A DNA stretch of 64,000 nucleotides, from NCBI GenBank assembly GCA_027858965.1, contig JAQIBS010000107.1:35617-99616 (forward strand), in the 5' to 3' direction. Source of the stretch: Kiritimatiellia bacterium (GTDB lineage Bacteria > Verrucomicrobiota > Kiritimatiellia > RFP12 > UBA1067). Positions 13,280 to 61,016 of this stretch are shown piece after piece; the first letter of the stretch is position 1; every line of letters begins with the position of its first letter. The translations under genes were made by a program, and so were the position numbers. The notes below the pieces were generated by a model. The model saw nothing but the letters and a program-made list of their open reading frames with translations. It was not told the DNA's origin and searched no databases.

Positions 13280-13302
13280 TTAAAAATAATTATTTACGGC
13301 AC

Positions 13303-13385: not shown

Positions 13386-14144
13386 ATGACAGTTTCTGAA
13401 AAACAAGGTTTTACTCTGGTTGAATTGCTGGTTGTTATTGGTATTATTGGTATTCTTTCAGCAGCGCTATTCCCCGCGATTTCAAATGCGGTGATGCAGG
13501 CTAATATGACGGCCGTCGGCACACGCGGACGTGATATATATGTTGCAATTACAGGTGCTAACACAGAACGGGAACCTCTTGGACTGGGTAATGTATGGCC
13601 GCAGACCGCCCCCGACGCAGTCAATAGCGAAGGTGATTTGGATATTGGAGATACGCCATATGACAATAGTTGTGATTATTTTTATGATTTGAATGATGGT
13701 GAAAATCTGGGTACTGTTGACTGGAGTCCTTATATTGCCGGTTTTGATTTTTCTAAACTGGCGGGTGCTGGTGTTCCTGCTCACGCTGGCAAAGGACAGT
13801 TGTTGCCAGCTAATAATATGTGGACAATTGCCGGTAATGTGCGTGATGAGATGGAGGATATCATTCCAATTCTCGTCACACGTAATCTTCCAGGAGCTTC
13901 GCTTTATGCAGATATTGAGGATGTGCCAAGCAGTGAAAGAATAATACTCGGCGAGACTTATGCAGCACCTTTCTCCAATAAAGGTGCGGTTATTATTCGT
14001 AAGGGCGGCGGAATGTTTAAGATCCGTGCCAAATATGCAACACCTCTGATTATTTACAATCGTCAGTCTTTCATGACAACGATTGGTACAGATAACGATC
14101 CTTTGACTTATCTTAGCCCTGATGGAAAAGAAGAGGCTCAATAA
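13386..14144 (+). CDS. Prepilin-type N-terminal cleavage/methylation-domain protein (type II secretion pseudopilin-like)
   Basis: GFTLVELLVVIGIIGILSAALFPA is the class III signal/methylation motif. The start was set at the ATG at 13386, which has a strong Shine-Dalgarno. Confidence 0.8.
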   Translation: MTVSEKQGFTLVELLVVIGIIGILSAALFPAISNAVMQANMTAVGTRGRDIYVAITGANTEREPLGLGNVWPQTAPDAVNSEGDLDIGDTPYDNSCDYFYDLNDGENLGTVDWSPYIAGFDFSKLAGAGVPAHAGKGQLLPANNMWTIAGNVRDEMEDIIPILVTRNLPGASLYADIEDVPSSERIILGETYAAPFSNKGAVIIRKGGGMFKIRAKYATPLIIYNRQSFMTTIGTDNDPLTYLSPDGKEEAQ

Positions 14145-14173
14145 GTAGGTTTGATGGTTTTTATTTTGAAACA

Positions 14174-14207
14174 GGGGGGGCAGCTTGCTGCTCCCTTATT
14201 TTATTTC
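14174..14207 (+). terminator. Rho-independent terminator
   Basis: GGGGGCAGC-TTG-CTGCTCCC hairpin of 8 bp with one G-U pair, followed by TTATTTTATTTC. Confidence 0.6.
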
Positions 14208-14362
14208 AGGTTTCCCCTTTTTACGAACTCCGCGATCCGGTGTGAGGCAGGTCAGCCGGTTTCGCTGTAGCTTCGCCTTGTAGGACTAAGGAGGATGACC
14301 ACGCCTGGAGCGACATATCCTGCTGTAGTCTTGGCGTAGGAGGAAGCGGCTCTCCTTGGATA

Positions 14363-16654: not shown

Positions 16655-16657
16655 AGA

Positions 16658-16728
16658 AGTGCGCGAGTGCGAGAGTTCTAAAGTGCGAGAGTTCTAAAGT
16701 GCGAGAGAGCTAAAGTGTAATTTTTAAA
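16658..16728 (+). repeat. Three tandem units of AGTGCGAGAGTTCTAA (the GTTCTAAAGTG family); related copies lie at 25562-25600 (minus strand), 21448-21480 and 61418-61450
   Basis: Shared core CGAGAGTTCTAAAGTG found at two loci, with degenerate copies at two more. Confidence 0.7.
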
Positions 16729-16807
16729 CATTGGGCCCATATGGCTCATACGGCCCACAGCGCAGCCTGTCGCCGCAGGCGACTCTCTTCATACGGCCCA
16801 TAATAAA

Positions 16808-17125
16808 ATGAGTACGATTTACGATAGAATGCAGAACCACCCGGAGATCACGCCTTTTCGTCAACGGGTGTTTGATGCTCTGCTGGAGGTGCCATGTGGT
16901 TATGTGACCACCTACGGTGCACTGGCCCGACGGATTAACTGCGGATCGGCTCGGGCGGTTGGCGGAGCTCTGCGCCATAATCCCCTGGCTCCTGAGGTGC
17001 CTTGCCATCGTGTGGTTGCCTCGGATCTGACCATTGGCTTCATGTTTTGCCTGACGCAACATATGCAAAGGGGTTCGCTTCGTAATGAACACTGTCAACT
17101 GTCAACTGTAGACTGTAGACTGTAG
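16808..17125 (+). CDS. Methylated-DNA-protein-cysteine methyltransferase family protein (DNA-binding/active-site domain only)
   Basis: The VPCHRVV active-site motif. The last ~9 codons and the stop are encoded by a CTGTAGA-type tandem repeat. Confidence 0.7.
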   Translation: MSTIYDRMQNHPEITPFRQRVFDALLEVPCGYVTTYGALARRINCGSARAVGGALRHNPLAPEVPCHRVVASDLTIGFMFCLTQHMQRGSLRNEHCQLSTVDCRL

Positions 17126-17135
17126 ACTGTAAATA
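17087..17135 (+). repeat. Tandem CTGTCAA/CTGTAGA heptamer repeats encoding the C-terminus and stop of the MGMT-family ORF
   Basis: CTGTCAACTGTCAACTGTAGACTGTAGACTGTAGACTGTAAATAGG. Confidence 0.8.
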
Positions 17136-17144
17136 GGAGATAAG

Positions 17145-19013
17145 ATGAAAATTAGAAGATATTTATTATGTGTTTGTTTCGCTGCTGTTGCGTTTGTAAT
17201 GCAAAGTATAGGTGCGGCCGATCTTGAAGTTTCCATTATGCCGGATGAGCTGTGCTCTCTTAAAGTTCCCTTGACTTTGGGTTTTCAACTGGGAATACCG
17301 GCGCGGGATAACTCTTCATTTTATGCAGAGTGTTTCTCAGCCAATGCCTTGCAGCACGAGATTCAGAAATTAAATGAGAGGATTGAAATCGGACTTCTGG
17401 TTAAACAGAAGATCGATCCTCAATCGGGAGAGATAACCGTTATTCTTAATAACACCTCAGCTGAGCAGAAGGGTTTGACGCTACGTAGCGGTCATCTTTT
17501 AAAAGGCAAAATTTATGTTGCCCGCGCTTTTGGAAGCAAAATCCGGGGGAAGCGGATTATTAATCTGCGTTTGCAGAGAGAAGGTAGTGCGCGTCCACCT
17601 ATGGTTGTTGAGGAGAAGCTTTCGCGTTGGAGTAAAGGCAGTGCACTCGAATGGGAGTTTATCCCGGAAGAGGATGGAGTTTATCTCTGTTCTTTTTTGA
17701 TACAACCAGATAGCGAAGTTTCGATTCGCGGGTTTTCGCTGCTGCCTGAGGACTCTCTTTCAATCTGGCGGGGCGCGAGCATTAATGTTCTGCAGAGCAC
17801 CGGTGCCGGTTTTTTCAGATGGCCGGTTGTGAGTGGTATGGATTTTTACAACTGGTATGATGGCGTCGGCGATCTCTCCAGACGTTTCGCTGTGCAACCG
17901 GAGAAAACCGGTCTGACGCATCACGATTTTGGTACAGCTGAGTATGTTGACTTCTGTCGTACAGTAGGGGTTGAACCCTTGATATGCGTGCCGCTCTATA
18001 CCTCCGGTTGCACGGATACACGCATTGCCGACTTGAATGCCGCTGCGCAACTGGCCGCTGACTGGGTGGCCTATTGCAATGCTGATGACCCGCACCCTCT
18101 GGCTTTATTGCGCAAGCGTAATGGCCTGGGCGATCCACTGCGAGTTAAGCACTGGGAATTGGTGGTTCCCGAAGCTGGAGCTCTTATATCTCCTCTTATA
18201 CTGGCGGATAACTGTCAGCGCACTATTCAGGTCATGAAGGAGGAGGATGCCGATATTCTGGTGGGAGCAACGCTTAAAGGTATCCAAATTAAAACATTGG
18301 ATACTCTGTTGCAACGCGCCGGTAAGCAGCTCGACTTTGTTACCTGCTATGCCCCCGGAGCGTATGAGCGCATAAAAATCTATAATCAGAAAAATGATAC
18401 TCATATTATGTTTGCCAATACTTTGCTGCAGGGCGATAAAAATCTAAGTGCAATGCGGATTGCCAAAGAGTTGGCTGCAGCGCGGGGGGTGCCTGTTGAA
18501 TATTATATTAACTGGTATCGTTCGCTGGGGATTGCCGGATCTGCATCCAGCCGCCTGGCTCTCTGTTATGATGGTCCGGTTTGTCTGCCCTATTATGCTG
18601 AGCAGGTGCTCGGTCTTAATCATGGTTTAACCCGACTCTCAACCGATATCGGATTGATAAGCGCTATGATCGGTCGCTTCCCCGCAGTTACCTCTCTGAA
18701 AGTTGATGCCGCTTCAGGAAAAGATGCGGATGCCTTATCAGTTACCGCGGCCTGGACTGAGGACGGATCTGTGCTGGTTGTGTTTGTCTATAATCCCACT
18801 CCGCAGGATCAGCTGCTCAAACTTAATCTAAGTCAGTTGAAAAAGCCGTTTGCCTTCTGGATTATGGATCAGCTGGGAGCTGAACTTACGGCTGCTCCTA
18901 AGAATACAACTCTTCCCGTTAGCCGTCGTCAGAAAGCCGGTTCAGCCTTAAAACAGGTGGTTGAATGCTGGATTGGACCTGCCTCTTTCACTCGCATCCT
19001 GGTCAAAGAGTAA
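17145..19013 (+). CDS. Secreted glycoside-hydrolase-like protein, family unassigned
   Basis: N-terminal signal peptide and its size. No diagnostic catalytic motif could be assigned by eye. Confidence 0.35.
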   Translation: MKIRRYLLCVCFAAVAFVMQSIGAADLEVSIMPDELCSLKVPLTLGFQLGIPARDNSSFYAECFSANALQHEIQKLNERIEIGLLVKQKIDPQSGEITVILNNTSAEQKGLTLRSGHLLKGKIYVARAFGSKIRGKRIINLRLQREGSARPPMVVEEKLSRWSKGSALEWEFIPEEDGVYLCSFLIQPDSEVSIRGFSLLPEDSLSIWRGASINVLQSTGAGFFRWPVVSGMDFYNWYDGVGDLSRRFAVQPEKTGLTHHDFGTAEYVDFCRTVGVEPLICVPLYTSGCTDTRIADLNAAAQLAADWVAYCNADDPHPLALLRKRNGLGDPLRVKHWELVVPEAGALISPLILADNCQRTIQVMKEEDADILVGATLKGIQIKTLDTLLQRAGKQLDFVTCYAPGAYERIKIYNQKNDTHIMFANTLLQGDKNLSAMRIAKELAAARGVPVEYYINWYRSLGIAGSASSRLALCYDGPVCLPYYAEQVLGLNHGLTRLSTDIGLISAMIGRFPAVTSLKVDAASGKDADALSVTAAWTEDGSVLVVFVYNPTPQDQLLKLNLSQLKKPFAFWIMDQLGAELTAAPKNTTLPVSRRQKAGSALKQVVECWIGPASFTRILVKE

Positions 19014-48632: not shown

Positions 48633-51281
48633 TTAATCCAGTATTTCCCGTACCTTAACGGCAAGATCCTGGATTGTAAAAGGCTTCTGAATGAAGTGCA
48701 CGCCCTTCTCGATAAGGCCCTGTTTGATGATGATGTCGGCCGTGTAGCCGGACATGAACATATGCTTGATTTCCGGGTGCAACAGGGTGAGATGGGTGGC
48801 TAGGTCCAGGCCGTTCATTTGGGGCATGACCACGTCGGTCAGCAGCAGACTGATCTCTTCGGTGTACTTTTCCGCCACCGCGATGGCCTCGTTCGGGAGG
48901 CCAGCCTTCAGAACACGGTAGCCCAGACCTTCCAGCATTTGCTTGCCCAGTTTCAGGATCGACGCTTCGTCCTCCACGAGCAGTATGGTTTCGTGGCCGC
49001 GGAGGGCCGCTTTCGCCGAGTCGGAGGTCGGTAGTTGCACGGCTTCGCCAAAGTGCCGGGGCAGGCAGAGTCTGAAGGTTGTCCCTTTTTCCGGTATGCT
49101 GGTGAGGTTGATGCAACCTTTGTTCTGCATGACGATGCCGTACACAGTGGCCAGGCCCAGCCCCGTGCCCTCGCCGACTTCCTTGGTGGTGTAGAATGGC
49201 TCGAAGATGTGTTTGATCGTCTCCGGATCCATGCCGCAGCCGGTGTCGCTGACAGAGATCGTCACGTATTCGCCGGGGACGAGATCCGTGTTCTTGGCGC
49301 AGAAGTTAGCGTCGGCGGTCAGGGTGCTGGTCTCGACCTTGAGCTTGCCCACCCCCGCGATGGCGTCGCGGGCGTTGACGCACAGGTTGGCCAGGATCTG
49401 GTCGATCTGCGCGGGATCCATCTTGACGGTTGTGTCTGCTGCCGTCGGCTGCCAGGTGAGGTCTATATTCTCGCCGATCAGCCGCCGCAGCATCATGAGC
49501 ATCCCGGACACGGTTTCGTTCAGGTCGAGCACTTTGGGCGTCATGGTCTGCTTGCGGGCGAACGCCAAGAGTTGGCGGGTCAGGTCGGCTGCACGGTTTG
49601 CGGCCTTCCGGCTCTCGGTCAGATCGTTGTGCAGCGCTGTCTCGGGATCGATCTCGTTCAGGGCCATATTCGTATAGCCGAGGATGACCTGGAGCATGTT
49701 GTTGAAATCGTGCGCCACGCCGCCGGCCAGTCGTCCGATGGATTCCATTTTTAGTGCCTGTTGCAACTGGGCTTCTGTTTTGCGCTGTTCGGTGATGTCT
49801 ATATACGCGCCAAGGATGCCGATGATTTGCCCTTGCGAGTTGCGCAGGGGAACTTTGCTCGTGAGAAGGATAATGGTTTCCCCTTCGGGTGTTGTCTGGG
49901 GTTCTTCTCTATCTAGAATCGTTTCGCCCTCGATGACCCGGAGGTCATCCGCGTTGTACATCTCCGCCAGATCTTTCCACTCCATATGGATATCATTTTT
50001 CCCAACGATTTCTTGCGGATTGGAAAAGCCCGCATCGAGCGCGAACGCTTTGTTGCATCCCAGATAAAGGAGATTGATGTCTTTCCAGAATACCCGGACG
50101 GGGATTGTGTTAAGGATGTCTTTGATGAGTTTCTGCGATTCGCGCAGCGCATCTTCGGCCTGTTTTTGTTCGGTGATGTCGCGCTTGACGGCCACGTAAT
50201 TGACGGTTTTGTCTGCGTCGTCGAGCACTGGAGAAATCGTTGCTTCTTCAGTATAGAAACTTCCGTCCTTGCGTTTGTTGACAAAGCGTCCTTTCCAGGT
50301 TTTGCCGTCGGTGAGGGTCTGCCACATATCGCGATAGAACGCCTCGTCCTGCTGACCGCTCTTCAAGATGCGTGGGTTTTTTCCTATTGCCTCTGTGCAC
50401 GAATAGCCCGACGTCTGTTTAAAGGCCGGGTTGGCGTACTGGATGGCTCCTTCCTCATCGGTGATGAATATGGTCTCGGCGGCCTGTTCGATGGCCTGCA
50501 TCAAACGCTCGTGTTTGGCCTCGGACTGCTTGTCATTAGTAATGTCGCGTAAGACATGCACCGCGCCGGTATATTTTCCGTCTGCATCCAGAATGGGATC
50601 TATAGTCACCATATACCAGAAATCACCAATCTGAAGTTCCTTGGTTTCGCGTTGCAAACTTTCTTTTGCTCGCACAAAGGGACAATCAGCGATCGGCCCG
50701 GTTATGCCATGCACGACTTCCCAGCACCGGGTTTCCCCCTCGCGAGCGGAGGATGGGAACAGCCGGTCCGCCTGCCTGTTCGAGCGCACGATCCGATGCT
50801 CCTCATCGAGTAGCCAGATTCCGTCGTTGGAGGCGTTAAATGTGCTGTGCCATTCCTTCGCTATCCGGGCCAGCGTCTCCTCGGACTGCTTGCGCTCGCG
50901 TCGCTCGACGGTTTCGTGCAGCCCGCGTTTGATCGCCGGGCCTAACCGTGTGAGATTGTCCTTCATGATGTAGTCGCTCGCGCCGGCTCGCATGGCGGTT
51001 ACCGCGACATCCTCGCCGATGGTGCCGGAGATGAGGATGATCGACAGGTCCAGCTCGCGCTCCTTTAGCAATTTTATCGCCTTTATCCCATCGAATTGCG
51101 GCAGGTTGTAGTCTACCAGAATGATATCCCAGCCTTGGTTGAGTTGGGCTAGATAATCGGCTTCCGTCTGCACTACCAAAATTTCGGGAGCAAAGCCTTC
51201 CGCCACCAATGTCTCGCGGATCATCTCGACATCCGCCGGATCATCTTCCAGATACAGGATACGCAACGGTTTTTTTTTCAT
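48633..51281 (-). CDS. Hybrid sensor histidine kinase: REC, PAS x3, HisKA, HATPase_c, REC
   Basis: N-terminal receiver (ILYLEDDPADVEM...DYNLPQFDG), H-box AGGVAHDFNNML, G-box SDTGCGMD and a C-terminal receiver (ILLVEDE...DVVMPQMNG). Confidence 0.85.
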   Translation of the reverse strand: MKKKPLRILYLEDDPADVEMIRETLVAEGFAPEILVVQTEADYLAQLNQGWDIILVDYNLPQFDGIKAIKLLKERELDLSIILISGTIGEDVAVTAMRAGASDYIMKDNLTRLGPAIKRGLHETVERRERKQSEETLARIAKEWHSTFNASNDGIWLLDEEHRIVRSNRQADRLFPSSAREGETRCWEVVHGITGPIADCPFVRAKESLQRETKELQIGDFWYMVTIDPILDADGKYTGAVHVLRDITNDKQSEAKHERLMQAIEQAAETIFITDEEGAIQYANPAFKQTSGYSCTEAIGKNPRILKSGQQDEAFYRDMWQTLTDGKTWKGRFVNKRKDGSFYTEEATISPVLDDADKTVNYVAVKRDITEQKQAEDALRESQKLIKDILNTIPVRVFWKDINLLYLGCNKAFALDAGFSNPQEIVGKNDIHMEWKDLAEMYNADDLRVIEGETILDREEPQTTPEGETIILLTSKVPLRNSQGQIIGILGAYIDITEQRKTEAQLQQALKMESIGRLAGGVAHDFNNMLQVILGYTNMALNEIDPETALHNDLTESRKAANRAADLTRQLLAFARKQTMTPKVLDLNETVSGMLMMLRRLIGENIDLTWQPTAADTTVKMDPAQIDQILANLCVNARDAIAGVGKLKVETSTLTADANFCAKNTDLVPGEYVTISVSDTGCGMDPETIKHIFEPFYTTKEVGEGTGLGLATVYGIVMQNKGCINLTSIPEKGTTFRLCLPRHFGEAVQLPTSDSAKAALRGHETILLVEDEASILKLGKQMLEGLGYRVLKAGLPNEAIAVAEKYTEEISLLLTDVVMPQMNGLDLATHLTLLHPEIKHMFMSGYTADIIIKQGLIEKGVHFIQKPFTIQDLAVKVREILD

Positions 51282-51295: not shown

Positions 51296-51760
51296 CTAGT
51301 GCGTCAACGACGGGCTATTCGAATTGGTGAGCGGCGATTCATTCAATGCCACCCAGAAGATACCCAGCGACTTGACCGCATCGATAAACTGGTGAAAATC
51401 AACTGGCTTAACCACATAGGCGTTGACCCCGAGTTTGTAGCTGGTAATCAAATCTCGTTCCTCCCGGGACGACGTAAGCATGACAACGGGCAGCAGCTTC
51501 ATCTTCTCGTCGGCCTTGATTTGGCGTAACACATCGAGGCCGTTGACTTTGGGTAGTTTGAGATCTAGAATCACCACGGCAGGGTTGCAGTCGTTCCGCG
51601 TCTGGAAGTTTCCTCGGCGATACAGATAATCTAAGGCCTCTTCACCGTCACGGGCGACGTCGATCCCGTTAGATAACTGGTATTCTTTAAGGGCGGTAAG
51701 GGTCAGTTCGACATCCTTGGGATCGTCTTCAACTAGGAGAATCCGTTTTATTTTGTTCAT
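51296..51760 (-). CDS. Single-domain response regulator (CheY-like receiver)
   Basis: ILLVEDDPKDVEL...ILDLKLPKVNG...VVMLTSS...KP receiver motifs. Confidence 0.85.
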   Translation of the reverse strand: MNKIKRILLVEDDPKDVELTLTALKEYQLSNGIDVARDGEEALDYLYRRGNFQTRNDCNPAVVILDLKLPKVNGLDVLRQIKADEKMKLLPVVMLTSSREERDLITSYKLGVNAYVVKPVDFHQFIDAVKSLGIFWVALNESPLTNSNSPSLTH

Positions 51761-51940
51761 AATCGTCCTTCTTTCTGTGCGAGCTAAGGGCCAACGCGAA
51801 AACTTATAAATTTATTTCCTCGCAGACCCTAAGATGCAGAACCCCAGGTACGGGATATGGCTTTGTCCAGTGAAACACCCGAGAACGGATCATGCATATC
51901 AATTTGAAATGAATAATAATTTATGTATATAGAATTATGC
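51761..51940 (-). promoter_or_regulatory. Leader/promoter region of the RR/hybrid-HK unit; about 85% identical to the leader of the sensor gene at 59001-59175
   Basis: Duplicated block GATATGC(A/G)(T/C)GATCCGTTCTCGGGT...GGACAA(C/A)GCCATATCC...GCATCTTAGGGTCTGCG(C/A)GGAAATAAAT...CACAGAAAGAAGGACGA, placed directly before each start codon. Confidence 0.55.
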
Positions 51941-52000
51941 CTTTTGGCACAAAAAGAGTCAAGCCTATTTTTCCTGTTCAATAGACGCGCGTTGCTGATA

Positions 52001-52190: not shown

Positions 52191-54164
52191 TCATAGAGAT
52201 TCGCCCGAGTCGTCTTTTGCAACCGAATCATGCGCTGTTATTCCCGCGTCTTCAAGCTGCGTGCACAAGTTCTTGATAATCAGCTTCAGCTCAGCCATGC
52301 GGTTTTCACGGCCCGCCATGACATTGACTACTTGTCGAAGTTCCTTCGTGCGCTCTAAAACTTCGCTCTCAAGAGTTGCTTGATGGCGCGCAAGAGCCTT
52401 TTCGGCCTGCTTACGGGCAGTGATGTCGCGCCCGATGCCTAATATGCCGAGCAGACTGCCGTCATGTCCGTAAATTGGCGTTTTAATGGTTTCGATCTGC
52501 TCAACATGGCCATCACTCAAAAAGGTTAGCTCTTCTTCGTTCATCGAGGGGCCGCCTTTTTTTATGGCGCGACGGTCATTTTCAAGGAAAAAATCCGCTG
52601 TATCTTTCGGCATGAAGTCATAGTCCGTGCGTCCGACGATGCTTTCTTTTTCAGCCCCAAAAAACTGTTCGAACCGCTGGTTACAAAGAAGATAGACCCC
52701 CTTGTCATCCTTCAACCACATCAGATCGGGACTGGTATCCACGACATCGCGTAGCATTTTACGGCTCTTATCGAGTTCCATTTCCGCTTGTTTTTGTTCC
52801 GTAATATCCTGATTGGTGCCGACCATACGTTCGGGATGACCGCCTTTATTGTAGAGAACATTCGCGTGAGCTCGGATCTGCCGGATCTCCCCATCAGGAC
52901 GAATGATGCGGAGGGAGGTGTCGTATTCATTTTTGCCTTTCACCGCCGCGCTGATTTCGGCATCCGCACTCTCCAGGTCGTCCGGGTGAACGCAATGCTT
53001 CCAGGCCTCATACGCGCCGCCGAATGCGTTCCTGGAGACCCCGTAGATTTCATACATTCGGTCGTCCCAGACCAATTGATTGGTGATCAAATTTAAATCC
53101 CACACCCCGATGCCGCCCGCCTGTGTTGCAATATTAAAGCGTTGGTTGGCGGTATGCAGCGCGACGGTATGTTTGCGGACCTCTCTTTTCAGGAAAATGA
53201 TCCAAATGAACACTCCTGCTGTAACCAACAGAAAAATGCAAATGGTAAATATGAAATAATTTCGTATTCGTGACCAGTCTGTGGAGTTGTCAAGCGGGCT
53301 GAGCCATTGGGTATGGATTCGGCGGTATTCACCGGAGGCATGGAGTTCCGCCAAACCGGTGTTGATCAGGTTTAAGAGTTCCGTCCGTCCGTGGGGCACG
53401 GCCAAGCAGTATTCGAACGAAACAAGACGCGGTTCGGCGACGTGCAGGTGGGTCCATTGGTTTTTCCTGATCCAGTAATTTCCCTGAATCATGGAACAGA
53501 TCGTGTAATCAACCTCTCCATTTTGAAGTAGAGCCAGCGCCTGTTGCGGATCAGTAACGGGAACCAGACGGGATGAAAGATTCTGTTTCAAGGCAAAGTC
53601 GTGTGTTATGTCGCCTTCAACAACAGCCACCCGGCGGTTTTTCATCGCATCGCGCGAGTCATACCGAGGGGAATCATTCCGGGCGAAAACGGCCTGGTGG
53701 TTCAAAAGGAGCGGTGAGGCAAAATCCAGCAGCTGTGCGCGGTTTTTTGAATAATACATGGTTGCGATGTCTAAGTGGCCTGAATTGACCTTTTGTCGCA
53801 CCTGATTCCAGGGCGTCAGCTCCAAAACAATATTTATCCCGGTCTGGCGCGATAGCGCTCGAATCAGATCGATATTAAATCCGGCTGGCCGGCCTTTTTT
53901 ATCGATAAACTCAAAGGGATAGAAGTCATGGTCACCCGCATAGACAAGAATGTTGGATCTTTCATTTTCATATCCAATGGTTTCCATCCACTTTTTGTGT
54001 ATTTGGTGGGCTGTTCCGTCGGGGTTAACAAGGGAGAAGGGCGGATAACACGGTTCCGCGGCGGAATGCAACGGCTTACCCTGCAAGGGAACGGTACAGA
54101 ATAAAAGCGAGAGCAGTATCACAGAATAAACCAGAACGGAGGGTTTTGGACTCTTTCTATTCAT
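52191..54164 (-). CDS. Kinase-less sensor: periplasmic family-3 solute-binding domain, TM, two PAS domains, and a C-terminal signalling-helix tail
   Basis: Signal peptide, an SBP_bac_3-like region, the TM helix FIFTICIFLLVTAGVFIWIIFL, PAS motifs, and termination after ERTKELRQVVNVMAGRENRMAELK with no HisKA or HATPase domain. Confidence 0.7.
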   Translation of the reverse strand: MNRKSPKPSVLVYSVILLSLLFCTVPLQGKPLHSAAEPCYPPFSLVNPDGTAHQIHKKWMETIGYENERSNILVYAGDHDFYPFEFIDKKGRPAGFNIDLIRALSRQTGINIVLELTPWNQVRQKVNSGHLDIATMYYSKNRAQLLDFASPLLLNHQAVFARNDSPRYDSRDAMKNRRVAVVEGDITHDFALKQNLSSRLVPVTDPQQALALLQNGEVDYTICSMIQGNYWIRKNQWTHLHVAEPRLVSFEYCLAVPHGRTELLNLINTGLAELHASGEYRRIHTQWLSPLDNSTDWSRIRNYFIFTICIFLLVTAGVFIWIIFLKREVRKHTVALHTANQRFNIATQAGGIGVWDLNLITNQLVWDDRMYEIYGVSRNAFGGAYEAWKHCVHPDDLESADAEISAAVKGKNEYDTSLRIIRPDGEIRQIRAHANVLYNKGGHPERMVGTNQDITEQKQAEMELDKSRKMLRDVVDTSPDLMWLKDDKGVYLLCNQRFEQFFGAEKESIVGRTDYDFMPKDTADFFLENDRRAIKKGGPSMNEEELTFLSDGHVEQIETIKTPIYGHDGSLLGILGIGRDITARKQAEKALARHQATLESEVLERTKELRQVVNVMAGRENRMAELKLIIKNLCTQLEDAGITAHDSVAKDDSGESL

Positions 54165-54177
54165 GATTAGACTCCTT

Positions 54178-56133
54178 CTAAATCGTTATTTTTTCCATGT
54201 TATTGGTTAGTTTTGGGAGTGAGAAATAGAAGGTGGACCCTTCGTTCAGCACACTCTCGGCCCAAGTGCGGCCGCCGTGACGTTGGATGATGCGCTGCAC
54301 ATTGGCCAGCCCGATGCCGGTGCCTTCAAATTGTTCCATGCTATGTAGACGCTGAAAAACCCCGAAAAGTTTTTCGACATACTTCATATCGAACCCGACG
54401 CCGTTATCACGGATGAAGAAGATGGTTTCGTGCTCATTCTGCGTATATCCCATTTGAATTTTCGCCTCGTCGCGCGGCCTGGTAAACTTTAGCGCGTTGG
54501 AGAACAGATTCGTCAGCACTGCATGCAGCAGAACCCGGTCAGCGTTGGCATGCGGCAGGGGAGCGAGGTCCCAAAGGATTCGCCGGCCCTGTATATCGGG
54601 GGTCAAGCCGTTGATAACCTTCTTCACCAGCGCATCGAGATTCACCGGCTTCCTGTGCAGCGCTTTGCGTCCCGTCCGCGAAAAGTCCAGTAGACCGTCA
54701 ATCAATCGGCCCATCTGCACGGCGGATTCGGAAATAAAGGTAAGATGCCGCCGGGCCTTTTCATCGAGATTCACTTGATCGTTATTTTGTAGCAACTCGG
54801 AAAATCCCGTGAGATGGCGGAGTGGCGCACGCAAATCGTGCGAGACCGAGTAAGCGAAAGCTTCCATCTCCTTGTTTGCGTCCTTAAGGGCTTGTGTGGT
54901 TCGCTCCAGACGGACTTGTGCAGACTGCAGATCTTCCAGCAGGTTGATCATCGCGCTGTTGAGTTGCTCCGCCTCGTTTGTTCGCGTGGTCAGTTCCGCG
55001 GTCCGCTCCTCAACGCGCTTCTCGAGCCGGGCATGCGCGGTCTCCAATTCTGCCTGCGTCCGTTTAAGCTCAGTGATGTCCACCCACTGGCATATAACGT
55101 TCGTCAGTTGTCCTTTGTCGTCCAGTATGGGGAACATTGAGACATCGATGGATAGATTGGGTGCGCCGTCGATGTCCCCGTCGTCGACATCTGCGGCCCG
55201 CCAGATCATACTGAAGCGACTGGACCTGTGTTTTTCGAAGACGGCCAGTACCTGGGGCGTGACCCCCTGGGCCTTCAAATTCATGTCTTTGAGAACATTG
55301 TATTTCCCCACGAGCTTCTCGTCGGTTAGGTTCAGTGTTTTCCGCAAAGAACTATTCGTCCTTATGATCGTTCCCTCCCTATCTGAGATCCACATGGAAA
55401 AGGGGCTCATGTTGATGACTGTATCGAGAAATGTGTTAGTGGTGTGGGCCTCTCTCTCCTGCTGTTTGCGTTGCTCAATTTCGTGCTCCAGGGTACGCGA
55501 GTGCGACTCCAGCTTCTCTATAAGGGGGGGCCCAAGTCGGGATAACAGCGCCACGCCGACCAGAATAACAAGCATGGCAAAGCCGAGTGCCGCCATTCCT
55601 GACCTAATGAATGGCGTGCGAATCTCCGCGATGTCGATCTTTGCCACAATCCCGAGGCCCAGTATGGCGACCGGCTCGTAGGCGGCCACTACCGTTTCGC
55701 CCCTATAATCGAGGCCTATGAGGGTTCCTGACATTCCCTTGAGTGCCCGACGCATGGGTTCGGCCAGGCTCGAAGCGAAATCCAATGGGGGAGGATGCCC
55801 GACACCGCCGTGTCGATGCCGGAGGATGAAATTGATGGATTCGCCATCGCGTCGTGCCAGTGTGAATTCGCCGGTCTCTCCGATGCCTGCAAAGCGTCGA
55901 TGCGCATCGACAATCTGACTTAATGTCGTCGACTGGGGGTTGTGGTCGGTAGCAATACTTCCATCTTCCCGCTTCGCATTGGAGTCATGTCGTGCGATCG
56001 CCTCAATCAAACATGCCTGGCTCTGCGCTGTGGCTATCAGCATCTGTCGATGGCTATTGAGATTATGGCGATAGAGAATGGTGGACATCACTATCAGAGA
56101 CATGGCGCAGGCTCCTACCATAGTGGCTGCCAT
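54178..56133 (-). CDS. Sensor histidine kinase (periplasmic sensor, TM, PAS, HisKA, HATPase_c)
   Basis: ERTAEL linker, H-box AYSVSHDLRAPLRHL, N/G boxes (IRDNGVGFD, GTGIGLANV). The start was set at the internal ATG at 56133 to avoid overlap with the upstream gene. Confidence 0.8.
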   Translation of the reverse strand: MAATMVGACAMSLIVMSTILYRHNLNSHRQMLIATAQSQACLIEAIARHDSNAKREDGSIATDHNPQSTTLSQIVDAHRRFAGIGETGEFTLARRDGESINFILRHRHGGVGHPPPLDFASSLAEPMRRALKGMSGTLIGLDYRGETVVAAYEPVAILGLGIVAKIDIAEIRTPFIRSGMAALGFAMLVILVGVALLSRLGPPLIEKLESHSRTLEHEIEQRKQQEREAHTTNTFLDTVINMSPFSMWISDREGTIIRTNSSLRKTLNLTDEKLVGKYNVLKDMNLKAQGVTPQVLAVFEKHRSSRFSMIWRAADVDDGDIDGAPNLSIDVSMFPILDDKGQLTNVICQWVDITELKRTQAELETAHARLEKRVEERTAELTTRTNEAEQLNSAMINLLEDLQSAQVRLERTTQALKDANKEMEAFAYSVSHDLRAPLRHLTGFSELLQNNDQVNLDEKARRHLTFISESAVQMGRLIDGLLDFSRTGRKALHRKPVNLDALVKKVINGLTPDIQGRRILWDLAPLPHANADRVLLHAVLTNLFSNALKFTRPRDEAKIQMGYTQNEHETIFFIRDNGVGFDMKYVEKLFGVFQRLHSMEQFEGTGIGLANVQRIIQRHGGRTWAESVLNEGSTFYFSLPKLTNNMEKITI

Positions 56134-56290
56134 AGCCACCAACCTGTCCCGCGCCCCCCTGTTCTTTGCAAAGGATTTCTTAGACAGGATTACAGGATTA
56201 ACCCGTCTCCGCCCGCAAGCGGGGCTACGCCGTGGCACAGCAGGATTATTATGCTTCGTTGTATTGCATTTATCTTTATAAATTTTTTTG

Positions 56291-58999
56291 CTATTCAAAA
56301 TCGCCCTCCGCACTCTCGACGGGCGCATGGCCGAGGTCGATGACCTGACTACGCAGACTCTCGTTTACCTTCTTCAGCTCTACCATACGATTTTCCCGCC
56401 CCGCCATGGCGCTAACAATCTTCTTCAGCTCGGCGGTCCGCCGAGCTGCCTTCTCTTCCGCCAGTTTCTTTTCGGTGATATCCATGCAGAAGACGATCAC
56501 CCCCGCGATGTTACCGGCTGCGTCGCGATGCGGAATCTTGTCGGTAATATACCAGTGCGTATCACCAGCAGCGGTGTGCAGGGGTTCAATAATCCCGAGC
56601 TTGGGCTGTCCTGATTGGATAACCTCGAGATCGTCTATGCGGAACCGTTCTGCCTCGTCGGGAAAGATCTCGGAGTCTGTCTTGCCTTCAATGTCGGCCA
56701 CGGTCATCCCGACAGATTCGGAGGCAGTCCGATTGACACGGAGGATTCGGCCTTCGGTATCTTTGAACCATATCATCGCACGCACCGAATCAAGGATGAC
56801 CTGTTGTTCAGAGCTTATCTTGGTAATCTCAGCGGTTCGTGCTGTCACCAGTTCCTCCAGATGGTCGCGGTACTTGATCAGTTCCGCTTCTGCCCGCTGG
56901 AGTTCAGAAAGCATTCTAGACTGTTGGATTGCACTGAAACTCAACGTTGAAATAATTGCAGAAAGTTTAGAGTAAAAGCGCATGCCGGCCTCCGCTTCTT
57001 GCCGACTGAATCTAGGGACTTTTTCGAATGCCGCAAGGTATTCCGTCTCATCGAATCCGTATTTCCGGGCCTGCTTCCGGAACAACTCGACATCGGGTGT
57101 TTCGTCAGTGTAAAAGAACTGACCGGTAAATACATTACCGACATGCTGGTCCCCTATCATAAGGGGTGTGACCATATCCCACATGTGGTTCTTGCAGTGG
57201 TATGCCTTAAAGGTTCCGAATGCTACCCCTTTGGTGAGGCAGGTGTCACTTTCAAGGCAGTTCTTGCATGATTCGGGATGAGCCCTGTGGAATTTCGTGC
57301 AGATATCCTGCCAGCCGACGGCCACTAAAATATTTCCGGAAAGGTCGAGTACAGCGCCCAACATGCCGGTCATCTGATAAAACTCTTCCATAATCGACTG
57401 CAGAACGTTGGTGTCAATAATGTCGGCAAGTTCAAGCGTACCGATATCGCCATCGGGTTCGATAATCGCTTTGAGCTTATTCCGGATGGTGGTTTCACTT
57501 TGGCGCAAGGCCTCCTCCGTCTGCTTGCGCTCGGTGATGTCGGAGTGCGTGCCTACCATGCGTAGCGGTTGGCCGGCGGCATCGCGGCTGACCACCATGC
57601 CGCGAGAGAGAATCCACTTGTAGCTGCCGTCTTTGCAGCGCATCCGAAATTCATTGACATAGATGGGAGTACGGTCGGCCAGATAGTTCTGAAAATTCGC
57701 CAGTGCACCCGCTAGATCGTCCGGATGGACAATTTTTTCCCACTCCTTAAACAGGTTCGCGATTTCGCTTTCGGCATACCCAAGTATTTCTTTCCAGCGT
57801 TTGGAAAAACGCACCGTTTTGGTTGGAATTTCCATATCCCATACACCATCACCGGCACCTTCGAGCGCAAACTTCCAGCGTTCCTCACTGGTCCGCAGGC
57901 GCGTTTCCTCCTTTTTCTGCCTGGCCAATTCACGCCGGGAAAACTTCAGCATTTGTTTTCGCCACAGCAGGCCGACGCTCAGCATGGCCGTTAGCAACAG
58001 AAGAGCGATGATGGCTGCGGTGGCCCAAGTCTCTTTGCGAAGCGGGCCGTAAATTTCCTTCTGATCAACCTTAGTCACCAAGAACCATGGTGTGCCCGGA
58101 ATCTTTCGCAACGCCGCTAAAACCGGGATGCCTCGGCAGTCTACCCCTTCCACTACGCCTTCCTTCCCCTGGACGGCCTTTGCTGCGGGCCGGTTCGGAT
58201 CGTTGATTGGAATCCGCAATGCCAGCGCAGCGTTGGTGCGATGGCGAAGATCATTTAGAAAAACCACCTCGTTGTCCTCGCGCCGGACGAGCAACGTTTT
58301 CGCCGTGGAGCTGGGTGTCGGCCAGCTCTGGATGAGGGGGTAGAGAAATCGCTGCGGATCTACAACCAGAAGCAACACGCCGTCCGCCGGTTGGTCTGCC
58401 TGCGAGTTGATACCGAATGGAATTAAGAAGGATAAATGGGTCAACTGGTTGGAATGGCAGTGATGCAGATCCTCAAAAACGACTTCCCTTGCATGCAACG
58501 CGGCTCCAACATGCTCGTCGATATGGGAGTCTTGCAGGAGGGAAGCATCAGCCGGCACCGCCAGTCGGGCTGCGCCGTGTGCGTCAAACAAGATCACTTG
58601 GCTGTAGTCATAATCCTGCTGAAATGTGGTCATCCACTTGAGCAACTCATCGCGATTGGCCGCGTCATCCGGTTCTGTGAAAAATTGCTGAATTTCATCC
58701 CAAACCATGTGCGTCTTGAAAATGATATTGGCATTGTTGTGCCGGTTCTTTATCCATCCCGCAATCTGGTTGACCTTCAAGTCCGCGATGGCAGCCAGCG
58801 TCTCCGTAGCGGTGCGATGGGTTTCGGCTTGTTGGCGTTTGTAATACACCCAGCAGGAGGGACCAATGGTCGCTATGCATATCAATGCGAGGGCGAAAAA
58901 GACACAGCGAAACCGGCGATCGACTACAGCGTTTGGAGTTGAGGATGGAGAAAGTGGCGATGCGTCTTGTGTCTTGGCAGGCGATTTGGCTTTCTTCAC
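56291..58999 (-). CDS. Kinase-less sensor: TM, Cache-like periplasmic domain, TM, PAS, PocR-like Cys-rich domain, PAS, and a C-terminal signalling-helix tail
   Basis: It ends after RRTAELKKIVSAMAGRENRMVELKK with no kinase core. The start was reassigned to the GTG at 58999, which follows the GAAAGAAGGACGA ribosome-binding site conserved with the RR gene leader. Confidence 0.65.
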   Translation of the reverse strand: MKKAKSPAKTQDASPLSPSSTPNAVVDRRFRCVFFALALICIATIGPSCWVYYKRQQAETHRTATETLAAIADLKVNQIAGWIKNRHNNANIIFKTHMVWDEIQQFFTEPDDAANRDELLKWMTTFQQDYDYSQVILFDAHGAARLAVPADASLLQDSHIDEHVGAALHAREVVFEDLHHCHSNQLTHLSFLIPFGINSQADQPADGVLLLVVDPQRFLYPLIQSWPTPSSTAKTLLVRREDNEVVFLNDLRHRTNAALALRIPINDPNRPAAKAVQGKEGVVEGVDCRGIPVLAALRKIPGTPWFLVTKVDQKEIYGPLRKETWATAAIIALLLLTAMLSVGLLWRKQMLKFSRRELARQKKEETRLRTSEERWKFALEGAGDGVWDMEIPTKTVRFSKRWKEILGYAESEIANLFKEWEKIVHPDDLAGALANFQNYLADRTPIYVNEFRMRCKDGSYKWILSRGMVVSRDAAGQPLRMVGTHSDITERKQTEEALRQSETTIRNKLKAIIEPDGDIGTLELADIIDTNVLQSIMEEFYQMTGMLGAVLDLSGNILVAVGWQDICTKFHRAHPESCKNCLESDTCLTKGVAFGTFKAYHCKNHMWDMVTPLMIGDQHVGNVFTGQFFYTDETPDVELFRKQARKYGFDETEYLAAFEKVPRFSRQEAEAGMRFYSKLSAIISTLSFSAIQQSRMLSELQRAEAELIKYRDHLEELVTARTAEITKISSEQQVILDSVRAMIWFKDTEGRILRVNRTASESVGMTVADIEGKTDSEIFPDEAERFRIDDLEVIQSGQPKLGIIEPLHTAAGDTHWYITDKIPHRDAAGNIAGVIVFCMDITEKKLAEEKAARRTAELKKIVSAMAGRENRMVELKKVNESLRSQVIDLGHAPVESAEGDFE

Positions 59000-59000
59000 T

Positions 59001-59175
59001 TCGTCCTTCTTTCTGTGTGAATTTATTTCCGCGCAGACCCTAAGATGCGGTAACCCAAGTATAGGATATGGCGTTGTCCAGAGAAATACCCGAGAACGGA
59101 TCGCGCATATCAATCTGACGTAAGCACTGATTTATCTATAAAATAGTTTGCCTCTCGGCATAAAAATAGTCAAGT
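59001..59175 (-). promoter_or_regulatory. Leader/promoter of the first sensor gene; duplicate of 51761-51940
   Basis: See the 51761-51940 entry. Confidence 0.55.
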
Positions 59176-59484
59176 CATTTATTCTGAAAACGGCAGTTGA
59201 AATCGTTAAAGACGTTGTAAGTGGAGCCAAAAATGGCTCCCGCGCTAACTTTATAGAGGGTTGCCAGTGATAATGTAGCCCAAGCATCCTGCTTGGCTTA
59301 TTATTGAGGCAAGCCGGTCTTCGCCCTTTGGGCTACGCCCCGACACGGCAGGATGCTTGCATTACTGTCCCCCGTACTCGCACACGTACTCCTGCACTCA
59401 AATCTCTTTTCCCGCTATCCTCATCAGGTTTAACCGCAGCCTCAATTTCGGTTCTTCCGACTTTTTAATGGGTGAATCATCGCT

Positions 59485-59582
59485 ACTCGGTATCGGGATC
59501 GCTATCGCTATCGGACACAGCAACCATCGGATTAAATTCGATACCGATGCCGATACCGATTGCGATATCGACAACAAAGACC
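59485..59582. repeat. Inverted GGTATC/GATACC hexamer arrays (potential long hairpin) in the divergent region between the sensor gene and purM
   Basis: CGGTATCGGGATCGCTATCGCTATCGG ... CGATACCGATGCCGATACCGATTGCGATATCG. Confidence 0.65.
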
Positions 59583-59836
59583 AATATTCACGTATAAACG
59601 ACAGTTTTAGTAACTTTCACAGCCTTTCACATCCATTTCAGCAGTCAAGGCCCTTGAGTTGAAAAAAGGTTACCCACACAAAAGTCGGAATAACCTCAAC
59701 TTTTTGTTTTTATAGCATAAAGCAGGGGGCGGTATTCATTCAGGCTGCATTTTCTGATTTTTTTGCTGGATAGCAGCCATTATAAGTGTTAATTTGCATC
59801 AATTATTGGAGTTTGTTCCATATAAAAGGGTTTATT

Positions 59837-60889
59837 ATGAAGAAAAAAGCAGTTGTCAAAAAAAAGAAGTCAGCATACGCTAACGCCGGAGTGGATATCG
59901 ATTCAAAGATGAATGGTATTCAAAGTATTAAAAAGATGGTAGCAGCCACCCAGACCGAGGGTGTTATTGGTGGAATTGGCAGTTTTGGCGGCCTTTTTGA
60001 GTCACCCGGTCGCGATCATATGCTGGTTTCCAGCGCTGATGGCGTGGGAACAAAGCTCAAGGTTGCCTGCATGGCTAATAAACACGACACCATTGGACAG
60101 GATATTGTTAATCATTGCGTAAATGATATTCTGGTGCAGGGTGCGAAACCGCTCTTTTTCCTCGATTATATTGGTGCGGCCCGTTTTGATGCTGAGATTT
60201 TCAATAATGTGATTAAAGGGCTTTGCCAGGCCTGCAAGCAGAATAACTGTGCGCTTCTGGGTGGCGAAACCGCTGAGATGCCTGGGCTTTATCCATTAGG
60301 TGAGTATGATCTGGTCGGAACTATAATCGGTACCGTGAAAAAGAGCAAGGTTATCACCGGAGAGAAGATCAGGCCTGGCGATGTGGTTATCGGGCTGCCT
60401 TCCGGTGGATTGCAGACCAATGGCTATTCGCTGGCCCGTAAGGTTATTTTTGATAAGTGTGGTCATGGTCTTCAGGATATATTCCCCGGAACCAAATCAA
60501 CCGTCACCCAGATTCTGCTGGCGGTTCACAAGAGCTTTCTTAAGCCGGTCACCGCTCTGATGGATGCCAAAATCCCGATTCCTGGTATGGCACATATCAC
60601 AGGTGGTGGTTTTTATGACAATATTCCGCGTGTTCTGCCTGATAACTGTGATGCCGAGATTGATCGCTCCAGCTGGAGTGTTCCGCCGGTCTTTACCTTT
60701 ATTGAACGTGAGGGCAAGGTGGATCACGATGAGATGTACCGCGTCTTTAATATGGGCATCGGCTATACCATCATTGTGCGCCCTAAGGATGTGGATGCCA
60801 CAATGAAGATTCTGAAGAAGATGCGTCAGGCACCGCTTGTTATTGGTAAGATCACCAAGGGCAAAAAAGTTGTCACTTGCATCAACTAA
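59837..60889 (+). CDS. purM: Phosphoribosylformylglycinamidine cyclo-ligase (AIR synthetase)
   Basis: SAYANAGVDID N-terminal motif and PurM family similarity throughout. The start was set at the ATG at 59837. Confidence 0.85.
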   Translation: MKKKAVVKKKKSAYANAGVDIDSKMNGIQSIKKMVAATQTEGVIGGIGSFGGLFESPGRDHMLVSSADGVGTKLKVACMANKHDTIGQDIVNHCVNDILVQGAKPLFFLDYIGAARFDAEIFNNVIKGLCQACKQNNCALLGGETAEMPGLYPLGEYDLVGTIIGTVKKSKVITGEKIRPGDVVIGLPSGGLQTNGYSLARKVIFDKCGHGLQDIFPGTKSTVTQILLAVHKSFLKPVTALMDAKIPIPGMAHITGGGFYDNIPRVLPDNCDAEIDRSSWSVPPVFTFIEREGKVDHDEMYRVFNMGIGYTIIVRPKDVDATMKILKKMRQAPLVIGKITKGKKVVTCIN

Positions 60890-60967: not shown

Positions 60968-61016
60968 CAATCGGTATCGGCATCGGTATCGGTATCGGTA
61001 TCGGTATCGGCATCGC
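60968..61016. repeat. Tandem hexamer array (GGTATC/GGCATC), about 7 units
   Basis: TCGGTATCGGCATCGGTATCGGTATCGGTATCGGTATCGGCATCG. Confidence 0.8.

Follow-up and report, generated by a model that had tools for sequence, protein, structure and literature searches.

Sensor domains can be joined to their outputs by the signalling helix (S-helix; PMC1592074), a heptad-periodic helix of about 40 residues which follows PAS, GAF or REC domains, lies between an upstream sensor or receiver domain and a downstream signalling domain, and bears an ERT signature at heptad positions c-d-e with the Arg on a d position. In multikinase networks of the RetS-GacS type (PMC8498467), a second sensor protein modulates a kinase through direct contact of helical signalling parts rather than by phosphotransfer, and several inputs converge on one kinase. 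Other separate polypeptides that feed information into a histidine kinase or inhibit it include LuxP-LuxQ, TorT-TorS, FixT, Sda and KipI. Short LOV/PAS proteins end in a dimeric C-terminal J-alpha helix without any enzymatic or DNA-binding output. Finally, bacteriophytochrome-type histidine kinases are associated with an Rcp1-like single REC partner.

We analysed a 64,000-nucleotide stretch ("the window") of a Kiritimatiellia bacterium (GCA_027858965.1, contig JAQIBS010000107.1, positions 35,617 to 99,616), in which two membrane sensors and a histidine kinase are encoded side by side. Both sensors end in an S-helix that is followed only by about 36 more residues and the stop codon. Their second conserved block, MAGRE-x-RM-x-ELK (a GRE triplet at c-d-e, two heptads after ERT), is not part of the S-helix description. 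RetS uses its own DHp domain, whereas the two sensors have none, so that the DHp-DHp interaction of a RetS-like heteromer does not apply; moreover RetS and GacS are not known to be a conserved operon pair with a dedicated short tail. The accessory proteins cited above act through periplasmic domains or on the DHp/ATPase core and are unrelated in sequence; none is known to have an S-helix-derived C-terminal tail or to form a family with interchangeable PAS, GAF and REC inputs. The helices of short LOV/PAS proteins are short and not known to be conserved as a motif, and their genes are not known to be systematically linked to one kinase class. The kinase of the window has a DHp domain closest to those of bacteriophytochrome kinases (PDB 9ys3 and 8uph, E-value = 7e-19), but its input is TM/PAS rather than a bilin photosensor.

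Two sensors without kinase domains

The relevant features of the window are the following.

56291..58999, minus strand: sensor A, 902 aa (GTG start), in the order TM, dCache_1, TM, PAS_3, PocR, PAS_4, tail
56294..56461, minus strand: tail of sensor A, AEEKAARRTAELKKIVSAMAGRENRMVELKKVNESLRSQVIDLGHAPVESAEGDFE, with the variant RRT in place of ERT
54178..56328, minus strand: histidine kinase, maximal ORF 716 aa, in the order TM, periplasmic region of about 160 aa, TM, PAS_9, long stalk, HisKA, HATPase_c
54856..55026, minus strand: kinase stalk, LEKRVEERTAELTTRTNEAEQLNSAMINLLEDLQSAQVRLERTTQALKDANKEMEAF, with an ERT signalling helix and a 35-residue insert containing LNSAMINLLEDL (54928-54963); the H-box SHDLRAP follows at 54823-54843
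52191..54164, minus strand: sensor B, 657 aa, in the order signal/TM, SBP_bac_3, TM, PAS_3, PAS_4, tail
52194..52379, minus strand: tail of sensor B, ATLESEVLERTKELRQVVNVMAGRENRMAELKLIIKNLCTQLEDAGITAHDSVAKDDSGESL
51296..51760, minus strand: single-domain response regulator (REC, 154 aa), first gene of the next transcription unit
48633..51281, minus strand: hybrid histidine kinase (REC, three PAS, HisKA, HATPase_c, REC; 882 aa)
59020..59184, minus strand: promoter/leader copy upstream of sensor A
51809..51973, minus strand: promoter/leader copy upstream of the REC gene

A preliminary description of the locus had noted that both sensors carry complete input modules, lack DHp and catalytic domains, and stop shortly after a conserved segment. 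This observation is confirmed. Pfam searches identified the input domains listed above and neither HisKA nor HATPase_c in either sensor, while both are present in the gene between them. RRTAEL (56426-56443) and MAGRENRM (56384-56407) are found in sensor A, and ERTKEL (52338-52355) and MAGRENRM (52296-52319) in sensor B; the proteins stop 31 and 34 residues after MAGRENRM, respectively. Sensor B is identical to MDA3924921.1 from a Kiritimatiellae MAG.

Two details of that description were inexact. The ERTAEL of the kinase had been said to lead directly into the H-box, but the Arg of ERT is 55 residues before the phospho-acceptor His. The whole tail had been considered as shared with the kinase, but a profile-profile comparison aligns the two over the first 18 columns only (REHLEELVAERTAELRRM with HARLEKRVEERTAELTTR, probability 88%). 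The shared element is thus the generic signalling-helix segment, and MAGRENRM has no counterpart in the kinase. We also considered the tail as a degenerate H-box (GREVR against SHDLR). This was rejected, because the register relative to ERT differs (the Arg of GRE is 14 residues after the Arg of ERT, the His 20 or 55 residues after it) and hhalign does not align the two.

The gene order is consistent with an operon. The stop codon TAG of the kinase is followed by AAGGAG, 7 nt, and the ATG of sensor B. The stop of sensor A lies within, or about 150 nt upstream of, the kinase start; the real kinase start is probably near 56133-56142, just before the first TM helix. For sensor A, the previously proposed GTG start (58999) is better than the start of the longest ORF (TTG 59113): the stretch 59020-59184 is a non-coding leader, paralogous to that upstream of the REC gene, and the alignment of the two runs through the ribosome-binding site to the start codon.

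A family of C-terminal tails

A profile of the tail detected 856 protein clusters at E-value ≤ 1e-3 among 1.84 billion proteins, of which 536 at E-value ≤ 1e-10. The 150 listed cluster representatives score from 1e-30 to 4e-15, far beyond chance; sensor B scores 1.3e-30 and a C-terminal fragment of sensor A 7.7e-24. In all 150 the match is C-terminal. In the 145 where the motif was located, its start lies 32-56 residues from the C-terminus (median 41) and no Pfam domain follows, so that, in contrast to the kinase itself, the tails do not occupy the usual S-helix position ahead of a downstream signalling domain. The family consensus is LE..V.ERT.ELR..VN.MAGRE[VN]RMAELK.VI..LR.QLE.AG.TPVADDPL. 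R, T, G, R, E, R, M, K, L, Q and G are invariant or nearly so in ungapped register (for ERT, R 100% and T 97% in 144 tails). Members are characterized by the Arg of ERT, 12 residues to A-G-R-E-x-R-M-x-x-L-K, a helix-ending Gly at +24 and the stop within about 30 further residues; both window tails fit in register.

Among 99 members, we identified PAS in 83, GAF in 24, REC in 21, HAMP in 6, SBP_bac_3 in 6 and dCache in 3. None of the 25 domain families listed is an output domain; HisKA occurs only once and HATPase_c is not among the 25. The tail is not specific to PAS co-sensors: it also terminates REC-PAS proteins and REC-only proteins of about 200 aa with no other domain, and therefore behaves as a general C-terminal output or adaptor module.

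Homologues continuing in frame as full-length kinases had been named beforehand as the observation that would point to recent truncation. The data contradict truncation, in agreement with the preliminary description. A decaying kinase gene would show sporadic occurrence, a variable end point and no conservation after the break, whereas the tail has a fixed end point, is under strong purifying selection in a large family spanning several phyla, and has a near-invariant sequence after the ERT part that no kinase has. The two window sensors are old paralogs, 33% identical over the last PAS plus tail, yet they keep MAGRENRM exactly. That the tail begins like the helix preceding a DHp, and that stop and start codons overlap by 4 nt in relatives, might suggest a remnant kinase or a fusion to the downstream kinase by frameshifting or readthrough. 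However, the downstream kinases start with their own TM and sensor regions, so that a fusion would be topologically odd. We rejected the frameshift fusion and regard this whole explanation as very unlikely.

The heptad register of the tail is continuous, with hydrophobic a/d positions from -19 to +23 in the ungapped family alignment; the Arg of ERT and the Arg of GRE both fall on d positions, 14 residues apart. In an AlphaFold2 model of sensor B, in which the cytoplasmic part has pLDDT above 90, residues 582-639 are predicted as one continuous helix (block-mean pLDDT falling from 96 to 84) followed by a disordered end. A plain homodimerising zipper capping the signalling helix would show such a pattern, and PAS proteins with only a C-terminal helix and no effector exist. 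In that case the sensors would act through PAS-PAS contacts with the kinase, or as ligand buffers, and the tail would carry no specific signal. This appears unlikely. The near-invariance across phyla of residues at b, c, e and g positions (A, G, E, R, K, Q), which are exposed in a dimeric coil, is not expected for a plain zipper and argues for a conserved partner surface. Nor are two buried Arg layers and a like-charged g/e' pair (R5/K10). The module is also equally conserved after GAF, REC and HAMP inputs.

To our knowledge the tail is undescribed. Searches of Pfam and NCBIfam, also at permissive thresholds, and a profile search of the PDB gave no significant match; weak similarities of the last 30 residues to the IF2 N-terminal domain and to Topoisomerase V helix-hairpin repeats (E-value about 0.07-0.1) were judged to be chance. 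A tblastn search of PLSDB plasmids found no match. Word-index protein searches with the short tail, with the kinase stalk, and with the internal module of one related protein (L013, below) returned only fragments or nothing. Literature searches for the motifs found nothing relevant, and searches by concept returned only general S-helix and RetS-GacS papers.

Linkage to one kinase class and inferred role of the tail

In loci from Kiritimatiellota, Krumholzibacteriota and many metagenomes, the kinase next to the tail gene exhibits the pattern ERTAEL-x9-LNxAMxNLLEDL-...-SHDL[RK]APLR, hereafter "stalk kinase". The Arg of ERT is 55 residues from the His in 19 of 19 stalk kinases, against 20 in a non-stalk SHDLKAPLR protein. 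The insert is therefore 35 residues, the length of the tail beyond ERT; in the tails, the Arg of ERT is 36 residues from the helix-ending Gly in 132 of 132. The insert is not matched convincingly by any solved structure, the best hits aligning it only from its Asn onward and poorly. The spacing from the PAS "DIT" motif to ERT, read from the sequences, is identical in sensor B and the window kinase.

The tail gene lies directly upstream of a stalk kinase on the same strand in the window (sensor A, then the kinase with LNSAMINLLEDL and SHDLRAPL) and in many of the tail-containing loci that we collected (numbered with the prefix L; L002, L004-L009, L095-L097, L099, L101, L102 and others). Start and stop overlap by 4 nt in four loci. 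Seven loci were picked for their long contigs before their neighbours were known. All 6 PAS/GAF-tail genes among them had such a kinase downstream, 5 directly and 1 after a PAS fragment that looks like the kinase's own split N-terminal part; the seventh, a REC-tail gene, had none. Of 34 tail genes with at least 4 kb of downstream sequence, 21 have the stalk motif within 5 kb on the same strand, while about a third have no stalk kinase nearby. Kinases directly after a tail gene are 13 stalk-type and 4 other, against 9 and 23 elsewhere in these loci (odds ratio 8.3, Fisher test p = 0.002). This test overstates independence, since all loci were chosen for containing a tail and many are phylogenetically related, and it compares kinases within these loci only, not with the background frequency of stalk kinases in genomes. 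Two-component proteins are the only recurrent neighbours. Tail genes often come in pairs (L010, L012, L024, L096, L097 and the window), and two tail genes plus one stalk kinase recur in L097 (L096 has two kinases). Sensor B is unusual in lying downstream of the kinase. One protein (L013) has MAGRENRM and a stalk-like AAVNLIEDL helix in the same chain, but a search for further such proteins found nothing. An apparent co-variation of the tail type (MAGRENRM or MAGREVRM) with the kinase motif (AMIN or AMAN) is confounded by phylogeny and was not used.

The preliminary description proposed that the sensors are trans-acting co-sensors which could heterodimerise with the signalling helix of the kinase, in a three-protein complex of a kind not previously described. 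This interpretation is supported in part. Functional coupling to the neighbouring kinase is strongly supported by conserved gene order and translational coupling in many unrelated lineages, whereas heterodimerisation remains a hypothesis. Sensors A and B are genuine kinase-less signalling proteins of a large, so far uncurated family, defined by a C-terminal module of about 55 residues. In this module, the signalling helix continues without a break into a second near-invariant heptad block (M-A-G-R-E-x-R-M-A-E-L-K) and ends in a helix cap and a short acidic peptide (AG-x-TP-x-ADDPL in most members, diverged in this clade). The tail would replace the DHp/ATPase, or any other, output and serve as output or adaptor of PAS, GAF, Cache, SBP and REC inputs. 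In this explanation, which as a whole we consider somewhat more likely than not, the three membrane proteins of the window would be co-transcribed and most likely work as one multi-input unit: each sensor dimer would read its own periplasmic or cytoplasmic cue and pass the result through its tail to the kinase, which belongs to a dedicated class with an extended stalk, an ERT helix plus a fixed five-heptad insert carrying LNRAMxNLLEDL before a bacteriophytochrome-type DHp. The kinase would then presumably signal to a small REC protein, the nearest of which starts the next transcription unit here. As to mechanism, we infer that the tail helices lie in register alongside the kinase stalk, forming a bundle of two stalk and two tail helices, which would bias the stalk's conformation and so the kinase/phosphatase balance. 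A hand tally of e/g charge pairs in a simple in-register parallel heterodimer is mixed, not clearly favourable. The analysis establishes the family and its strictly terminal position, the absence of outputs, the operon linkage and the kinase class; binding of the tail to the stalk, its geometry, any effect on autophosphorylation and the sign of regulation are inferred, from synteny and length matching that are only indirect evidence.

Alternatively, the tail may be an autonomous output module whose partner is another conserved two-component part (for example the small REC protein or the hybrid kinase of the same clusters) or an unlinked cellular target, the linkage to the stalk kinase then reflecting a shared pathway rather than direct contact. 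REC-tail proteins are rarely next to a stalk kinase (1 in 14 evaluable) and often lie beside hybrid or other kinases (L100, L083), so that the tail may have another or additional partner. A small REC gene follows the stalk kinase in many loci, and the acidic end peptide (TPVADDPL) looks like a docking peptide. On the other hand, no non-two-component neighbour recurs, the tightest and most conserved adjacency is that of tail gene then stalk kinase with overlapping stop and start, and the tail helix and the kinase insert have matching lengths. The end peptide is also poorly conserved in the window's own clade, while MAGRENRM is kept. We regard this alternative as possible but unlikely.

More speculatively, the MAGRE tail might be a dedicated plug, which separately encoded sensor dimers (PAS, GAF, Cache, SBP, and REC after phosphorylation) insert alongside a matching five-heptad socket, the LNRAMxNLLEDL insert, in the stalk of a special kinase class. 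This would build modular multi-sensor kinase complexes whose inputs can be swapped by adding or losing small genes, a split, combinatorial version of the multi-PAS kinase found across several phyla. The evidence does not rule this out, but we hold it only tentatively.

Many bacterial genomes encode PAS, GAF or REC proteins with no recognisable output, and how they signal is mostly unknown. The present finding provides hundreds of them with a defining C-terminal motif, a likely partner (one kinase class with a matching stalk insert) and a testable geometry. If the docking model is right, signal integration in two-component systems could occur by lateral assembly on the coiled-coil stalk, not only within one polypeptide or by phosphorelay, and the tail would supply a compact, portable module for wiring new inputs to a kinase. 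In practice, the tail deserves its own family model, so that these proteins are no longer annotated only as "PAS domain S-box protein".

Adjacent genes and promoter/leader copies

The hybrid kinase of the window (48633..51281) has a different H-box type (AHDFNN) and no stalk motif. The leader upstream of sensor A (59020-59184) is 79% identical to that upstream of the REC gene (51809-51973). An Rfam search and consensus folding of this repeated leader gave no support for a known or structured RNA. It is also conserved upstream of the sensor A ortholog in L095 (9810-10000), and the copy upstream of the REC gene contains a sigma-70-like site, TTGACT-17-CATAAT, at 51962-51934.

The five two-component genes of the minus strand

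Five two-component genes lie on the minus strand, with the following domain contents according to Pfam:

56291..58999 (minus strand), sensor A, 902 aa: dCache_1, PAS_3, PocR, PAS_4
54178..56328 (minus strand, maximal ORF), histidine kinase, 716 aa: PAS_9, HisKA, HATPase_c
52191..54164 (minus strand), sensor B, 657 aa: SBP_bac_3, PAS_3, PAS_4
51296..51760 (minus strand), response regulator, 154 aa: REC only
48633..51281 (minus strand), hybrid kinase, 882 aa: REC, three PAS, HisKA, HATPase_c, REC

Each of the first three proteins exhibits two hydrophobic segments flanking an extracytoplasmic domain, and all three are therefore membrane sensors with different outside domains. Sensor B is identical to MDA3924921.1 of a Kiritimatiellae MAG, publicly annotated as "transporter substrate-binding domain-containing protein" or "PAS domain S-box-containing protein". 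The stop of the kinase gene is followed by AAGGAG, 7 nt, then the ATG of sensor B, whereas a 431-nt spacer separates sensor B from the REC gene. The stop of sensor A lies inside the longest ORF of the kinase. However, the first 65 residues of this ORF (56133-56328) are basic and of low complexity, and overlap the end of sensor A. The real kinase start is probably near 56133-56142, just before the first TM helix, which leaves an AT-rich gap of about 150 nt after sensor A.

The GTG start proposed for sensor A at position 58999 in the preliminary description is right. The 165 nt upstream (59020-59184, minus strand) are 79% identical to 51809-51973 (minus strand), upstream of the REC gene, and the alignment runs through the ribosome-binding site to the start codon. 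This promoter/leader, repeated in front of the sensor A operon and of the REC/hybrid-kinase operon, is also conserved upstream of the sensor A ortholog in a related contig (locus L095, 9810-10000). It has a TTGACT-17-CATAAT site and a conserved leader of about 90 nt running into the ribosome-binding site. An Rfam search returned no match and a consensus fold received little covariation support. The repetition suggests common regulation of the two units. Short hexamer tandem repeats (ATCGCT, CGATAC, ATCGGT; 5-8 copies) at 59479-59571 and 60970-61015 flank the purM-like gene (59786..60889), next to the promoter region of the sensor operon.

A conserved C-terminal tail shared by a large family

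The observation that sensors A and B stop just after a conserved helical segment carrying MAGRENRM, without any kinase domain, is confirmed: both end in this tail, and neither has HisKA or HATPase_c. The two sensors are old paralogs, 32% identical over PAS_3 and 33% over the last PAS plus tail, which nevertheless keep MAGRENRM exactly. A profile built from the two tails plus three close fragments was run against 1.84 billion cluster representatives, and gave 856 hits at E ≤ 1e-3 and 536 at E ≤ 1e-10. In all 150 hits listed, the match ends near the C-terminus. The motif was located by pattern in 145 of them, with a median of 41 residues (range 32-56) from its start to the C-terminus. The alignment is ungapped, with the consensus LE..V.ERT.ELR..VN.MAGRE[VN]RMAELK.VI..LR.QLE.AG[LM]TPVADDPL followed by 5-15 variable residues. 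The R and T of ERT, and G, R, E, R, M, K, L, Q, G and P, are invariant or nearly so. The exact peptide MAGRENRM occurs as a terminal tail in genomes of several phyla, namely five Kiritimatiellota, a Krumholzibacteriota, an Anaerolineales, a Thermoanaerobaculales and a Nitrospiraceae MAG. A Chloroflexota MAG protein also carries a tail, and a metagenome scan found 240 more relatives. These data rule out recent truncation, so that the argument against it made in the preliminary description is proven.

Of 99 members scanned with Pfam, 83 have PAS, 24 GAF, 21 REC, 6 HAMP, 6 SBP_bac_3 and 3 dCache. None of the 25 families listed is an output domain, and HisKA occurs once. Proteins of about 200 aa consisting only of REC plus tail exist, so that the initial account, which dealt with two multi-PAS sensors, needs correction in that the tail also ends REC proteins. 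Inside multi-domain members, ERT helices that lead to another PAS continue with the usual linker (...ANxxLxxEIxERKRAEE...), and only the last ERT helix continues with MAGRE. The tail is therefore the sole candidate output. In several members (e.g. P0048, P0030, P0123, P0140 and P0141 of the family), two ERT signalling helices occur in tandem, about 39 residues apart, with no domain between them, the second one carrying the MAGRE tail. An odd 463-aa protein of a Thermoanaerobaculales MAG (locus L011, 309-1700) has a HisKA match (residues 269-325, SHDLKAPLR) followed by part of a PAS domain and then a normal tail; it may be a recombinant or an assembly chimera. Searches of Pfam, NCBIfam and PDB gave nothing for the tail, PLSDB plasmids hold no copy, and the motif strings do not occur in the searchable literature.

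The heptad register of the tail is continuous over six heptads. The Arg of ERT and the Arg of GRE both fall on d positions, 14 residues apart. The description of the signalling helix (S-helix; PMC1592074) places ERT at c-d-e with Arg at d, and the tail is thus an S-helix followed by a second ERT-like triplet (G-R-E). Invariant residues (A, G, E, R, K, Q) occupy b, c, e and g positions, which is more than a simple zipper would need. An AlphaFold2 model of sensor B, computed with the family alignment, gives a confident cytoplasmic part, in which one helix is predicted from residue 582 to 639, with block-mean pLDDT falling from 96 to 84, followed by a disordered end. The family is an exception to the published picture of the S-helix.

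The tail compared with the kinase stalk

The preliminary description held that the tail is shared with the kinase, in which the ERT helix would lead directly into the H-box. Both points need correction. Profile-profile comparison aligns tail and kinase stalk over the first 18 columns only (probability 88%), that is, over the generic ERT segment, and the MAGRE block has no counterpart in the kinase. The distance from the Arg of ERT to the His is 55 residues in this kinase and in 18 other such kinases, against 20 in a non-stalk SHDLKAPLR protein. The difference is a fixed 35-residue (five-heptad) insert with the conserved motif LNRAMxNLLEDL. In the region 55000-54880 (kinase residues 444-483), the kinase studied here has a second exact ERT triplet (LERTTQAL) 34 residues after the first and 21 residues before the His. 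The stalk therefore looks like a tandem duplication of the signalling helix, although other stalk kinases have only a degenerate version. The DHp of the kinase is closest to bacteriophytochrome kinases. No solved structure matches the insert convincingly, the best hits aligning it only from the Asn of the insert onward, and poorly.

Gene neighbourhood and inferred mechanism

In the Pontiellaceae and Kiritimatiellota loci (L004-L008) and the Krumholzibacteriota locus (L009), the tail gene is immediately followed by a kinase with this stalk and an SHDLRAPLR H-box, often with a 4-nt overlap at the junction. The same holds in many metagenomic loci. We further examined seven family members picked for long contigs before their neighbours were known. 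All six PAS/GAF-tail proteins had a stalk kinase downstream, five directly (loci L096, L097, L099, L101 and L102) and one (L095) after a 239-aa PAS fragment that looks like the split N-terminal part of the kinase itself. The seventh, a REC-tail protein (L100), followed a hybrid kinase instead. In L095, the closest relative, the stalk kinase is thus in two pieces, the 239-aa PAS piece and a 347-aa HisKA-HATPase piece (a frameshift or a true split), and a second kinase (MASE11) has the same ERT-to-His spacing but a degenerate stalk motif (LNKEMTNLVNNL); the two kinases lie at 12720-14631 and 16230-17717.

Among tail genes with at least 4 kb of downstream sequence, 21 of 34 have the stalk motif plus H-box within 5 kb on the same strand. 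Within the loci, kinases directly after a tail gene are 13 stalk-type and 4 other, while kinases elsewhere are 9 and 23 (odds ratio 8.3, p = 0.002), although these loci are not phylogenetically independent. No neighbour family other than two-component proteins recurs. Tail genes often come in twos or threes (loci L010, L012, L024, L096 and L097). L097 has two tail genes then one stalk kinase, the same cast as in the window, whereas L095 has the same leader and the sensor A ortholog but only one tail sensor. Coupling of the tail proteins to the kinase is thus well supported by comparative genomics.

The preliminary interpretation, that the sensors are trans-acting partners which could heterodimerise with the signalling helix of the kinase, is partly supported. 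The family, its C-terminal tail and the gene linkage are results of the sequence comparisons, whereas any physical interaction of tail and kinase, and its geometry, is inferred. The tail helix beyond ERT is 36 residues to the capping Gly (132/132), the same length as the 35-residue insert of the kinase. The spacing from the PAS "DIT" motif to ERT, read from the sequences, is the same in sensor B and the kinase, but 11 residues shorter in sensor A. If a sensor sits beside the kinase with PAS domains level, its tail would run along the insert and end where the ordinary DHp entry begins. We therefore favour lateral docking of the tail helices on the stalk, a variant of the initial idea. It should also be noted that REC-tail proteins are rarely beside stalk kinases, and that about a third of tail genes with enough flanking sequence have no such neighbour. 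S-helix proteins and accessory sensors of kinases are already known, but the tail module and its pairing with a stalk-insert kinase class appear undescribed. One 944-aa multi-PAS protein of a Bacteroidales MAG (locus L013, 4966-7800) carries MAGRENRM internally and, about 60 residues later in the same chain, AAVNLIEDL, which resembles the kinase-stalk motif, followed by more PAS domains. A search for its relatives gave nothing, and it is the only cis combination found, but it hints that the two helices belong together.
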